A stretch of DNA of 64,000 nt, from IMG/VR virus record IMGVR_UViG_3300045303_000221, positions 23,893 through 87,892 of that record, one strand, 5' to 3'. Below are positions 17,607 through 56,789 of the stretch, one piece after another. Under the pieces are notes generated by a model that did no database searches, had not been told where the DNA came from, and worked only from the letters and a program-made list of their open reading frames with translations. The DNA is from a virus. Each line of letters begins with the position of its first letter. The stretch's first letter is position 1. The position numbers and the translations under genes were made by a program.

Positions 17607-17792
17607 ATGGACTGCCCGAGGTGCGGCACGCCAATGGTGCGCGAGAAGGCTCACGACACCTGCCACTGGTGCGGCTACATCGAGCCGTGCTGCTCGGGCG
17701 AGTGCTCGCCGCCGGACTACCCCCCAACCGGCGTGCGCGCGGACCGTTCCCAACGATTCCAGGCCGCGCGTCCCTACTACCCGACAGGTTAG
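17607..17792 (+). CDS. small zinc-ribbon protein
   Basis: CPRCG...CHWCGY..PCC. Confidence 0.55.
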   Translation: MDCPRCGTPMVREKAHDTCHWCGYIEPCCSGECSPPDYPPTGVRADRSQRFQAARPYYPTG

Positions 17793-18205
17793 GCCGCTGC
17801 GGCGGCGACGCCAAGGCTGGCGACCCCGAGGATGCTCATCAGCGTGCCGCGCGGGATCGAGCGGTTGCCGTGCATCGGCACGACCACCTTCCGGCCGCCG
17901 CCGGGCGGCTCAAAGACGGCGTGCGATCCCTTCTGGCCGATGCGCTTGAACCCGGCCTTCACGAGCATCTTGTAGACCTGCTTGGGAGTCATCGCCGGGA
18001 GCCGCGAGCCGACGAAGCTGCGCGTCTCGATCGGGTGCCCTTGGCCGTCCATCGGGATGAACTCGCCGATGCGGTTGCGGCGGTGCAGAGCCTCGTCCCA
18101 CCGGACGGACGGAGGGCGGGCCTCCATGATCCTCGCGGCGCGCAGGGCGACCGCGAGGGACACGCCGCGCGACTCGTGGAGAGCCACCCGATCCCAGAAG
18201 TCCAT
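17789..18205 (-). CDS. hicA: HicA-family RNase domain with N-terminal HPR-type tag
   Basis: MTPKQVYKMLVKAGF..IGQKGSHAVF...VVVPMHGNRSIPRGTLMSIL; leader IMEA...WDEALHRRNRIGEF; leaderless TACGAT-N6-ATG. Confidence 0.85.
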   Translation of the reverse strand: MDFWDRVALHESRGVSLAVALRAARIMEARPPSVRWDEALHRRNRIGEFIPMDGQGHPIETRSFVGSRLPAMTPKQVYKMLVKAGFKRIGQKGSHAVFEPPGGGRKVVVPMHGNRSIPRGTLMSILGVASLGVAAAAA

Positions 18206-18248
18206 GCGTGGATCGTAGTACGACCGCTGCGACCTGTAGCATTCAGGC

Positions 18249-54722: not shown

Positions 54723-54777
54723 CAGTCAGCGGGATGCGCAGTGCGCGGAGCAGGTGCGTGCGGTGTAGCATCCGGGC

Positions 54778-56256
54778 ATGGAGACGCTGGTGGAGCGCGA
54801 CGTTTCGCAGGACGAGCGGGACAAGCTCGCGGACAAGGGCCACGCGATGGCCGACGGCTCGTTCCCGATCAAGCACACCGGCGACCTGAAGAACGCGGTC
54901 AAGGCGCACGGCCGGGCGAAGGACAAGGCGGCTGCGAAGGCGCATATCTGCAAGCGGGCGAAGGCATTGGGGGCTGAGCACATGCTGCCGGACGAGTGGA
55001 AGCTGTCGGAGGCGTGGGATGCGTCGGCGCAGCGGGCGCGCGCGGTCGAGGGGCACCTGGCGCACATGGCGACCGACCCGGGCTACGACCCGCTGCGAGA
55101 GGCCGCCGGGTACACGGCGACGCTGCATCCTCGGGACCGGCTCGGGCGGTGGCGAGAGGTTCCCGGGTCGGCGCTGGCGCACGTCGGAGCGCAGGCTGCT
55201 CGGGCGGACTTCAGCCGGTCGCGCTCGCGCGGCGCGGGCATCGTTCCCCCGGATGCGCGGCGCGAGGCGGCGATCCGGGCGACGGTGCTGCGGCGTGATG
55301 CTCAGAGTCCGGCTGAGAAGGTGCGGGTGAACCGCGGCAAGTCGTTCGGTCACGCTCGGCCTCGGCCGCCGGAGCCTGCTGCGAGTGCACCGGCGCACGC
55401 GCCGACGGCGATGATGCGGAACATGGACGCGCTGGCGCATGACCAGTTCGCGGCGCTGACGGTGGCGAGCAAGGCGCGTGCGCGCGGCGGGCCGCGGTGG
55501 CAGTTCACGGACAACCGCGGCGTGAAGAAGGAGGGGTACGTGGAGAAGGTGTCGGATCGTGGCGGCACCGACATCACGTACTTCTTCCGCGACGACGACG
55601 ACGTGCTGTCGGTCGTGAGCGGTCCGCACGTGGTGCGGACGAAGGCGGGGCCGCTGCGTGATCGGAAGCCGGACGTGTGGGGTGACATGCACGGGCGCGG
55701 CGTGTCGATCACGGTGCAGTCGCACGGGTCGAAGGGGCCGGAGCACTTCGCGGCGCAGGCGGCGAGGCACCGCGCGACGGAGAAGGCGCTGCGCGACCGC
55801 GGCGAGCACGCGGAGGCGAAGGGCTACGGCGAGATGGCGGCGAACTACGAGGCGCGCGCCGGTGGCATGTCCCTGGAAGACCTGACCCGCCAGCACGAGT
55901 CGATGCCGAAGATCAGCAAGCGCGAGGCGAACGCCGAGGTGCGCTCGATGGTCGCCGATCGGGCGGCCCGGCTCGCGGACGAGACGCTGCCGTCGTCGCA
56001 GTCGCCCGAGCACCTGAAGACGCTCTCGCTGTCGCAACTGGCGAGCGTGATCCGGCGCGACTGGGGCGGCAAGGTCAACTACGCGGCCAAGCCGTACCTC
56101 GATGCGCTCGGGTCGCTGGAGCAGATCGAGGACAACTACGGGGCCGATCCCGGCCGGATGATCGTGGCCTACTTCCTGTCGAACGCGACCTCGTGGCGGG
56201 GGCCGACGGCGAAGGCCGTGAAGGCCGAACTGAAGCGCCGGTCGGGCCGTCGGTGA
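54778..56256 (+). CDS. HPR-tagged multidomain putative head protein (DUF6582-like N-terminus)
   Basis: AMADGSFPI...DLKNAV...HICKRAKALG...LPDEW; LREA...LHPRDRLGRW; C-terminal IRRDW..VNYAAKPYLDA...YFLSNA.SWRG..AK.VK.ELK; leaderless TAGCAT-N6-ATG. Confidence 0.8.
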   Translation: METLVERDVSQDERDKLADKGHAMADGSFPIKHTGDLKNAVKAHGRAKDKAAAKAHICKRAKALGAEHMLPDEWKLSEAWDASAQRARAVEGHLAHMATDPGYDPLREAAGYTATLHPRDRLGRWREVPGSALAHVGAQAARADFSRSRSRGAGIVPPDARREAAIRATVLRRDAQSPAEKVRVNRGKSFGHARPRPPEPAASAPAHAPTAMMRNMDALAHDQFAALTVASKARARGGPRWQFTDNRGVKKEGYVEKVSDRGGTDITYFFRDDDDVLSVVSGPHVVRTKAGPLRDRKPDVWGDMHGRGVSITVQSHGSKGPEHFAAQAARHRATEKALRDRGEHAEAKGYGEMAANYEARAGGMSLEDLTRQHESMPKISKREANAEVRSMVADRAARLADETLPSSQSPEHLKTLSLSQLASVIRRDWGGKVNYAAKPYLDALGSLEQIEDNYGADPGRMIVAYFLSNATSWRGPTAKAVKAELKRRSGRR

Positions 56257-56789
56257 CCTGGGTCGGCTCCGAGCAGCGGGAGCGCGCTGTCGGTCGTCAC
56301 CTGGCCGTGCTGCGAGAGGCGAGCTACGCGGAGCTTCTGCACCCGCGTGACCGGGTGGGGCGGTGGCGGATCAAGCTCGGGGTGGCCGGGAAGAAGATGG
56401 GTCACGCGCTGGACAAGGCGCTGGGCGAGCCGACGCAGATGCAGCGCGGGCCGGTGACGCTGCACGACCTCGGGATCCCGGTGACGAATCTGGCGCAGCG
56501 GCCGGGGAAGATCAAGGCGTCGCTGCGGCGTGACCAGCGGTTCTTCGCGCCGCACTTCCGGATCGAGACGACGGGGGTGGACGAGCAGGGCCTGGCGACG
56601 CACTTCCCGGAGCCGATGCACGTGACGCCGGATGCGGACGTGGAGTCGTTCGCTCGCGAGGAGCGCGACAAGGTGAAGGCGAAGGGCATGGCGGTGTACC
56701 AGCGGATCCATCACATTCGCGGGAAGGGGCCGGGCGAGCAGTCGGTCGTGCATGAGCAGGGGGCGCGGCCCCGCGCGTACCGAGGCTGA
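56253..56789 (+). CDS. HPR-tagged protein
   Basis: GTGA overlap; WVGSEQRERAV...LREASYAELLHPRDRVGRW. Confidence 0.75.
   Translation: MTWVGSEQRERAVGRHLAVLREASYAELLHPRDRVGRWRIKLGVAGKKMGHALDKALGEPTQMQRGPVTLHDLGIPVTNLAQRPGKIKASLRRDQRFFAPHFRIETTGVDEQGLATHFPEPMHVTPDADVESFAREERDKVKAKGMAVYQRIHHIRGKGPGEQSVVHEQGARPRAYRG

Follow-up and report, generated by a model that had tools for sequence, protein, structure and literature searches.

Phage heads are known or predicted to contain enzymes that enter the host with the DNA, and how such cargo is chosen, cut and sent is not understood for most phages. The question is raised by a 64,000-nt stretch of viral DNA (the window), the last part of IMG/VR record IMGVR_UViG_3300045303_000221, in which a short peptide tag with a His-Pro-Arg core recurs in nine proteins. 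An earlier note, made from the sequence alone, had proposed that these tags lie behind Glu/Ala sites and mark effectors packaged in the head. The tag corresponds, in this phage, to a header of about 19 residues, [FWY]-x-E-x-L-H-P-R-D-x-x-G-[RK]-[FW]-x-[DE]-K-x-G, which is widespread in phages and apparently undescribed. As argued below, the header probably marks enzymes that are carried in the virus head, cut free by the head protease with the header kept, and delivered to the host.

The record is a single contig of 87.9 kb with an estimated completeness of ~74% (CheckV). Its phage is uncultured and of actinomycete-like G+C (70%), and the + strand carries nearly every gene. The capsid protein is less than 30% identical to every protein in 50,697 phage records; thus, no cultured close relative is present among those records. 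Within the window, the gene order is portal (26411), MuF (28287), zeta kinase (34579), giant protein (38427), four smaller genes to 56789, protease/scaffold (61123) and capsid protein (62961). This order supplies the virion-gene context and the MuF linkage that characterize phage polyvalent proteins, which are predicted to be virion cargo delivered with the DNA (Iyer, Burroughs, Anand, de Souza and Aravind 2017, PMC5512222). The giant protein itself fits the definition of such a protein, with two PG_binding_1 domains, GNAT, PolyA_pol/CCA plus HD, LPD1 and four HExxH modules.

Copies of the tag in the window

The tag was sought in the six-frame translation with a regular expression and with a small hidden Markov model (HMM) built from the clear copies. 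This search returns 17 copies in nine proteins, far above chance and in agreement with the count of the earlier note; 11 copies are strong, four are variant and two are decayed. The strong copies follow [WFY]-x3-[LQ]-HPR[DNG]R.G[RK][WF], score 31-40 bits with HMM E-values of 1e-9 to 6e-12, and have their His codons at 34975, 39435, 41994, 43386, 45414, 46764, 48147, 49074, 50195, 55126 and 56340. Variant copies are found at 18327 (HPHDRRGRF), 19359 (HPHGRGGRF), 51180 (HPRSHGKF) and 38523, and the form at 38523 recurs at the N-terminus of another protein, P0026. The decayed copies are LHRRNRIGEF in HicA (18059-18106, - strand) and FPKGTDRAGQF in the MuF protein (29154-29198). All the copies listed in the earlier note are present, most of them having been placed one residue early, at the Leu.

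When the MuF protein is aligned with its orthologue of L091, a 134-kb IMG/VR contig, the decayed copy falls on a true tag, residue by residue, and the decayed HicA copy is counted as a tag because true tags flank the HicA domain in the relatives P0023 and P0007. Every copy falls in the coding frame of a real gene, and off-frame matches score less than 9 bits. An artefact of composition was rejected, since the hits are frame-specific and the flank statistics given below hold against shuffles. In the remaining first 24 kb of the record, neither the regular expression nor the HMM finds a tag.

The residues H, P, R, G and [FW] are invariant, and yet the synonymous codon positions differ from copy to copy without constraint. 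Such free variation indicates selection for the peptide rather than for the DNA, and for the same reason a DNA-level repeat or gene conversion was rejected as the source of the copies. In a related idea, the header has no function as a peptide and either links domains passively or serves recombination as a cassette of DNA. This idea draws on the shuffling of the modules, since HicA, the CCA enzyme, the zeta kinase and the zincin each occur both alone and in fusions, and on gene 50171, which is split off the giant gene by a GTGA overlap. However, linkers do not keep an invariant His-Pro-Arg, the synonymous positions are free, and the conservation spans records of 45-73% G+C; this explanation is therefore very improbable. 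As to codon usage, 12 of the tag copies contain many A/T-ending or rare codons (CAT, CCT, GAT, CGT, AGG, CGA, GGT) despite the 70% G+C of the record, and these differ between copies.

The Glu/Ala flank

The sequence [LVMAI]-x-E-[AS], with its Glu at -7 to -10, precedes nine of the 13 clear tags, compared with ~0.27 expected from a background of 0.0052 per position; as the 13 are paralogues, the count reflects conservation and not 13 independent events. The earlier note had stated that most tags lie shortly after (L/V/M/A)-x-E-(A/S/G), and had named an E-A frequency no higher than background as the result that would speak against its proposal. The count bears out the former and is far from the latter.

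If the site is cut after Glu, the header begins 2-5 residues past the predicted cut. In gene 50171 the start codon occupies the place of the Glu at the other junctions, so that its product looks like a module already "cut" at the predicted place and may be regarded as a natural control. Indeed, the natural start of this product and of several foreign proteins is 3-4 residues ahead of the aromatic residue, close to the new end expected from the predicted cut.

Head protease, scaffold and capsid protein

Which protease might recognize these sites is suggested by the gene at 61123..62466 (+ strand). Residues 1-165 of its product form a prohead protease domain with a predicted gp21-like fold, which is followed by an acidic linker and a coiled-coil scaffold. 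An AF2 model of the protease domain, made with 35 homologues (predicted local distance difference test score, pLDDT, 79), aligns with T4 gp21 (5JBL_A; VIA-align) over 136 of 165 residues, with Z 12.1 and a root-mean-square deviation of 3.0; the next structural match, herpesvirus assemblin (VZV protease), has Z 5.6. A protein atlas of language-model look-alikes likewise places the N-terminal 200 residues with Peptidase_S77/S80 (0.95). At the level of sequence profiles, residues 1-210 give no Pfam match at E<=5, PF03420/S77 included, the protease-family profile has no sequence match among PDB chains, and Foldseek of the model against PDB returns nothing. Thus, by its model, the 61123 protease is a fold-level relative of T4 gp21 with a presumably like function and not a profile-level member of the family. 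Two candidate catalytic residues, H61 and S128, are invariant in the 35 homologues and occur along the sequence in the gp21 order.

Inside proheads, proteases of the gp21 type cut after Glu. Internal proteins lose their leaders in this way, and scaffold proteins are destroyed by gp21 and its relatives in giant phages through cuts at numerous redundant sites (PMC9026906). The protease/scaffold of the window contains 18 h-x-E-[ASG] sites (h, hydrophobic), compared with 4.1 +/- 1.9 in composition-matched shuffles (z 7.1). This excess is specific, in that it is absent if Asp takes the place of Glu at P1 or if the residue at P1' or P3 is of another class, and all 120 of 120 protease/scaffold homologues (42-100% identity) show it, at ~3.3-fold.

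The major capsid protein (62961..63998, + strand; Pfam Phage_capsid_4, 3.4e-35), which is nearly complete in the window, has four such sites compared with 1.6 expected overall, and two of them, IFE/A and LQE/A, lie in the first 28 residues (62961-63050). In 119 of 119 homologues, sites of this kind are present in the first 45 residues, at a density of 4.63 per 100 amino acids (aa) vs 0.44 elsewhere. Behind a stretch that varies in length, the homologues share a fixed L-(Q/E/L)-E/A-D-S-(R/K)-A-D-F-P, which a maturation cut would lead one to expect, and the second site is followed by an invariant A-D-S-(R/K)-A-D-F-P-E-F-L; judging from this pattern, the second h-x-E/A site probably gives the mature N-terminus. 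In the portal (26411..28303, + strand; phrog_10963 portal, 2.8e-27), the excess is marginal (nine sites vs 5.1 expected). Consequently, the view that the same site is frequent in the head proteins holds for the protease/scaffold and for the capsid N-terminus, and only marginally for the portal.

The header in other phages

A profile of the 13 window copies was searched against 1.84 billion representative proteins and matches 443 protein clusters at E<=1e-3, 71 of them at E<=1e-10. Most are polyvalent-type proteins of 1-3 kaa (thousand amino acids) with 2-9 copies. The consensus of 426 instances from 149 proteins reads [FWY](-5)-[DENT]-E(-3)-x-[LKQ]-H-P-R-x3-G-[RK]-[FW], with a weak extension as far as a Gly at +13 and an enrichment of Gly just downstream of the header. 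The first copy lies within 40 residues of the start in 45 of 145 proteins and near the C-terminus in only two, which argues that the header belongs to the N-terminal edge of a module; some proteins even begin M-W-V-E-D-L-HPR or M-A-D-F-N-P-S-E-HPR. Behind it stand unrelated modules, with enzymes of the kinds usual in polyvalent proteins, among them peptidoglycan (PG)-binding domains, the CCA-adding enzyme plus HD, zeta kinase, HicA, GNAT, ART, SAM lyase, Tpt1, RelA/SpoT, topoisomerase, helicases, a sigma-factor region, ParB, NUDIX and zincins. Headers are also present in portal, MuF and S78-protease fusions.

At the DNA level, a degenerate pattern for E-x-L-HPRD-x-x-G-R-F occurs in 99 stretches of IMG/VR, compared with ~1 expected, on contigs of 45-73% G+C, and in 43 stretches of 596 Gb of cellular genomes, ~26 of which are true tags. 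The pattern is thus about 20 times denser in viral contigs than in cellular genomes, a factor that rests on an estimated size of IMG/VR. An exact DNA pattern for HPRDRRGRW gives only off-frame chance matches in IMG/VR. Among 115 open reading frames (ORFs) adjoining tagged genes, Pfam identifies 14 portals, six MuF, five terminases, four capsid proteins and three S78 proteases, and no conjugation family is present among the 25 most frequent families listed for these neighbours. In four of five complete or nearly complete records the tagged protein is fused to MuF or adjoins it.

The header lies outside every Pfam and NCBIfam model (scans of 60-aa segments around it yielded rows at chance level only), its profile matches no PDB chain, and full-text literature searches with motif strings and with capsid-targeting, MuF and polyvalent terms found no description of it. 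A tblastn search with the header plus zincin module has no match in the 50,697 phage records; with the C-terminal 2276 aa of the giant protein, matches to the CCA enzyme dominate, and with the protein P0006 only the MuF-like region of Vi1-like phages is matched. An Stx-phage locus reached through a match to the capsid protein was dropped, as it belongs to a lambdoid siphovirus without a polyvalent protein.

Two cultured phages carry the header. In Streptomyces phage Gilgamesh (L155, NC_073461.1; 129 kb), the region 17074-33788 encodes a portal-MuF fusion, gp46, and then gp48, a hypothetical protein of 4624 aa with a single header 36 residues from its start (KAARRKWNPALHPRDSKGRF). In Pseudomonas phage Orimi01 (L156, PP179326.1; 46 kb), the 703-aa gp4 (2270-4381), which occupies the portal position, ends in an acidic linker, a header (DADFDENKHPRSDDGKF) and an ADP-ribosyltransferase-like domain of ~165 aa (LYRG…STS…EKE). 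In Streptomyces and Kitasatospora genomes, proteins of more than 2000 aa likewise carry a header of this kind, ~35 residues into the open frame. A further group of chromosomal ORFs in Kitasatospora/Streptomyces (L106, L107, L114, L115, L118-L121, L135, L147), of ~350-480 aa, contains LRLRxKxxPFRExLHPRDGxGRF, mostly near the start.

The loop of the header is acidic in other lineages (HPRDEHGRF), and the basic loop (RDRRGRW) is special to the lineage of the window. Acidic loops of this kind mean that a purely electrostatic role in DNA binding is not general, contrary to the suggestion of the earlier note that a basic HPR end may bind DNA. A broader possibility is that the header acts only after delivery, by binding a conserved host component or nucleic acid, with no part in loading or exit. 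An invariant partner, such as DNA or a universal host factor, would agree with the retention of the header across phages with differing families of capsid, portal and protease, and the predicted presence of the header on the mature module and its richness in Arg/Lys, Gly and aromatic residues would also suit such a role. However, the targets of the payloads are unrelated (peptidoglycan, tRNA, nucleotides, proteins, DNA), the loop is acidic in many lineages, and the tight linkage to head genes, together with the MuF, portal and protease fusions, points to the virion; a purely post-delivery role is accordingly judged unlikely.

Flank type and protease family

The residues before the header differ between phages. 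A Glu at -8 is present in only about one quarter of the instances family-wide, and the flank is lineage-specific, being all E-type ("LQEA"), all K-type (h-x-K), or T-A-A / A-A-G-D, with E and K rarely mixed in one protein. Given this frequency, and the Lys or other flanks elsewhere, the Glu/Ala is not part of the universal tag.

The flank appears to follow the family of the head protease. All four records with an E-type flank (the window, G001, G011 and, weakly, G002) contain a gp21-like protease/scaffold, compared with none of the 12 records with other flanks, and no S78 match is found in those E-type records that were searched, G011 being left out. Among the eight K-type records, three have an S78 protease and none has a gp21-like one, and two of the three S78 proteins are themselves enriched in h-x-K (z 4.6 and 2.4). 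The inference that the flank before the tag follows the head-protease family is thus supported by the sequences compared. A separate observation concerns L021 (IMG/VR contig 3300035693_000027), where the ORF at 5190-6731 encodes an S78 prohead protease, then a header and a C-terminal region of ~200 aa, so that a protease can carry a headed module.

The main rival to cleavage by the head protease is that the header is a recognition or cleavage element of the embedded zincin metallopeptidases, with the Glu/Ala flank incidental and processing perhaps taking place after delivery. Self-processing of polyvalent proteins by these peptidases has been predicted (PMC5512222). The motif HExxH occurs 85 times in the tagged proteins, compared with ~8 expected, and is found in 59 of 145 proteins; the phage of the window encodes four zincin modules in its giant protein and a fifth in the MuF protein, and no junction element other than the header is universal. 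On the other hand, 59% of the tagged proteins lack HExxH, many start straight with the header and have nothing to remove, each zincin module is itself just another headed module, and the flank tracks the head-protease family rather than the presence of a zincin. An AF2 model of the header plus zincin module 2, made from a 10-row alignment, is too poor to judge docking (mean pLDDT 52, ~32 over the header). On balance, zincin-directed cleavage seems improbable as the function of the header.

A proposed route for head cargo

Cleavage by the head protease, with the header retained, is the reading held here to be probable. In the phage of the window, a junction consists of a leader (WDASEQRxRxV or PWWDEDE), h-x-E/A, the header, a flexible stretch and an enzyme. 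These elements support a general junction grammar, (leader)-(head-protease site)-(header)-(flexible stretch)-(enzyme), and, with the covarying flanks, they suggest that the tagged proteins encounter the head protease and hence would reside inside proheads. The prohead would first take up the giant protein, together with the MuF protein and the small tagged proteins. The gp21-like protease would then cut them after Glu, as well as degrading its own scaffold at 18 sites and trimming the capsid protein at LQE/A. Each module freed in this way would keep its header as the new N-terminus, and the modules (among them the CCA-adding enzyme, GNAT, zeta-like kinase, zincins and PG-binding modules) would finally exit the head with the DNA and act in the host.

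In this sequence of events the header most likely serves as a delivery handle, holding or ordering the cargo in the head or guiding its exit. As it would stay on the mature module, it is not a removable targeting leader of the T4 type. In a bolder form of the proposal, which is tentative and which we hold to be the lesser probability, tailed phages at large would use the header as a portable signal for delivery. Recognized by a single conserved partner (MuF, the portal channel or packaged DNA), the header would then suffice for head retention and host delivery of any fused protein, with lineage-specific protease sites just before it freeing the modules.

Several observations weigh against the proposed route. 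Two tagged genes, 18249 and, on the opposite strand, HicA, do not belong to the head block but lie ~7 kb ahead of the portal. The E-A flank is missing in four of the 13 clear tags (46764, 34975, 51180 and 19359). The covariation of flank and protease depends on few independent lineages, since close relatives make up three of the four E-type records and the match in the remaining one is weak (8e-7). The excess of h-x-E-A in the coiled-coil scaffold could in part reflect helix periodicity, although the Asp and P1' controls argue otherwise. Finally, the header is strictly kept across phages whose capsid, portal and protease families differ, with no obvious conserved partner; its partner should therefore be invariant (MuF, DNA or the header itself), or the header should serve a common step such as portal exit.

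If the route is correct, a header behind a protease-matched cut site would provide a readable grammar by which virion cargo, including anti-defence enzymes, could be found in any phage genome. It would also explain the disassembly of giant polyvalent proteins, a step that Iyer et al. predicted and assigned to other peptidases. The header could moreover serve as a general tag for loading chosen proteins into phage particles, and its cultured carriers, Streptomyces phage Gilgamesh and Pseudomonas phage Orimi01, are possible test systems.

Proteins that carry the tag

Upstream of the portal, two tagged genes are arranged divergently (17789-18361 and 18249-19844). The first (17789..18361, - strand) encodes a HicA domain (Pfam HicA_toxin, 3e-16) with an N-terminal extension, in which the decayed tag VRWDEALHRRNRIGEF (18059..18106, - strand) stands behind IMEA; it scores only 3.0 bits with the HMM, and its assignment comes from the context in relatives. 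The second (18249..19844, + strand) encodes a 531-aa protein of no known family with two tags. Its leader WEDSEARRCAV and an LAEA precede the N-terminal tag FNPGLHPHDRRGRF (18312..18353, + strand; after LAE/A, 23.9 bits), and the variant tag YDKSKHPHGRGGRF (19344..19385, + strand; 7.9 bits) is internal and without an E-A flank.

Directly behind the portal gene lies the gene for the MuF-domain protein (28287..31451, + strand), which is 40% identical to the MuF polyvalent protein of L091 and also contains a zincin HELLH module. Its decayed tag WERRFPKGTDRAGQF (29154..29198, + strand) follows LEAVE/A, at the place where the alignment with the orthologue has the true tag. The sequence WHPPLHHGCPC, with its HHGCPC, contains the H-x-x-C-x-C core of MuF / SPP1 gp7 (PF04233); the protein has no Pfam match at E<=0.01, the PF04233 profile included. 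A homologue search with the MuF domain returned only two proteins. Elsewhere, the MuF Pfam profile matches tagged proteins or their neighbours in G003, G004 and G007. The zeta-toxin-like kinase protein (34579..36762, + strand; Pfam Zeta_toxin, 2.4e-20) has a single tag at residue 132, FQEKLHPRGRGGKF (34960..35001, + strand; 32.9 bits), with no E-A directly upstream.

The giant polyvalent protein (38427..50174, + strand) is 3915 aa long and has eight tags. From Pfam and a reading of its motifs, it comprises two PG-binding modules, four zincin HExxH modules with LPD1, GNAT, the CCA-adding enzyme with HD, and unassigned modules. The N-terminal tag is the variant (GGGEF; 38508..38549) that recurs in P0026. 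Those that follow, all on the + strand, are after AQE/A, heading zincin module 1 (39420..39461; 34.4 bits); after VQE/A, heading zincin module 2 (41979..42020; 35.4 bits); after VVE/A, heading the GNAT and CCA/HD modules (43371..43412; 31.2 bits); after VME/A, heading zincin module 3 (45399..45440; 34.5 bits); without an E-A flank (RQHGGY...), heading a module of ~460 aa of no known family (46749..46790; 31.9 bits); after LAE/A, heading zincin module 4 (48132..48173; 32.8 bits); and after LAE/S, heading the C-terminal module (49059..49100; 33.5 bits). The zincin motifs are HEVGH, HEMGH (twice) and HELGH, each followed by SPxELWARAY, and LPD1 is matched by Pfam at 1.2e-10. Two further regularities are seen in this protein. 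A second repeated element, which opens with (V/I) and ends with (D/E)n, is present upstream of E/A at four junctions (39330-39420, 41940-41975, 43320-43365 and 48090-48130), and each zincin module keeps an R-T-R ~35 residues downstream of the header.

The four smaller genes, all on the + strand, carry one tag each. The gene at 50171..51079 encodes a 302-aa protein with the tag at its extreme N-terminus (50180..50221; 37.5 bits; start codon at position -8), and its GTG start overlaps the stop codon of the giant gene (GTGA). The 229-aa protein of 51069..51758, identified by the HMM and a reading of the gene, has a leader WDASEQRVRSV, VSE/G and the variant tag FTERLHPRSHGKF (51165..51206; 12.0 bits), the loop of which is shorter by one residue. 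The 492-aa protein of 54778..56256 consists of a 75-aa N-terminal domain, LSE/A, a leader WDASAQRARAV, LRE/A, the tag (55111..55152; 38.6 bits) and a C-terminal phrog_13953 domain. The last, a 178-aa protein (56253..56789), has a leader WVGSEQRERAV, LRE/A and the tag (56325..56366; 40.3 bits). In the 54778 protein, the first 75 residues (54778-55010; DGSFPIKHTGDLKNAVKAHGRAKDK) form a separate small domain that ends at LSE/A, before the leader and header; its motif presumably recurs at the N-terminus of head proteins in other phages.

Upstream of the start codons of genes 18249, 34579 (zeta), 38427 (giant) and 54778, a TAGCAT/TAGACT/TAGAGT box is present at 6-7 nt (18223-18251, 34553-34581, 38401-38429 and 54752-54780). 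The position of these boxes suggests separate leaderless transcripts of an actinomycete-like kind. Genes 50171 and 56253 begin with GTG right behind the preceding gene, 56253 overlapping the final codons of the 54778 gene.

Comparison with known systems

The closest parallel is the head cargo of T4, in which gp21 cuts (L/I)-x-E sites and a capsid targeting sequence (CTS) is carried by IPI-III and Alt (PMC9026906). The two systems share the gp21 fold, a hydrophobic P3 and cuts after Glu (here predicted), a scaffold and a capsid N-terminus that are rich in sites, and unrelated cargo proteins with a common N-terminal element beside the cut. However, the T4 CTS precedes the cut and is removed, whereas the header follows the predicted cut and would be kept; the CTS is lineage-specific, whereas the header is common to phages with other protease families; and the protease of the window is fused to the scaffold and undetected by Pfam S77. 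The likeness to T4 drawn in the earlier note is indirectly supported by the predicted fold, the enrichment of Glu sites and the covarying flanks, and does not extend to the tag itself. To judge by its position, the upstream leader WDASEQRxRxV fits the role of a T4-type CTS better than the header does. In the giant phages phiKZ (gp175), 201phi2-1 and SPN3US, many proteins of the head and of the ejection apparatus are likewise cut after Glu by relatives of gp21, and the propeptides contain redundant sites (PMC9026906); unlike the case described here, no shared header is reported there, and the phage of the window is smaller (88-kb record, ~74% complete).

Phage-type polyvalent proteins (PMC5512222) resemble the giant and MuF proteins in their many unrelated effector domains, their several zincins and LPD1. 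That work assigns processing to the embedded zincins and not to a prohead protease. The header, which here is also found on stand-alone proteins, goes unmentioned in its main text, where 'HPR' has no occurrence. The sole precedent for virion carriage of a polyvalent protein is gp47 of phi24B, detected in virions by mass spectrometry (bioRxiv 10.64898/2026.04.10.717836). The MuF polymorphic toxins of temperate phages (Jamet et al. 2017, PMC5576092) are similar in combining MuF with variable C-terminal payloads, and the header often follows a MuF domain. They differ in that the paper reports neither a conserved junction motif nor cleavage, whereas here there are many modules, and the carrier may be MuF, portal, protease or none. 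The Dar system of phage P1, with DarA/Hdf on the inner capsid wall (PMC12810830), is a precedent for cargo inside an HK97-fold shell and has no sequence likeness to the header.

If the header were indeed a universal signal, it would be the phage counterpart of the cargo-loading peptides of encapsulins, conserved across bacterial phyla. In encapsulins, a short portable peptide loads any fused protein into an HK97-fold shell; it has no sequence likeness to the header, and the comparison is one of analogy. Overall, phage cargo that is packaged in the head and processed by a protease is already known, as are polyvalent proteins, and the header itself appears to be the undescribed element.

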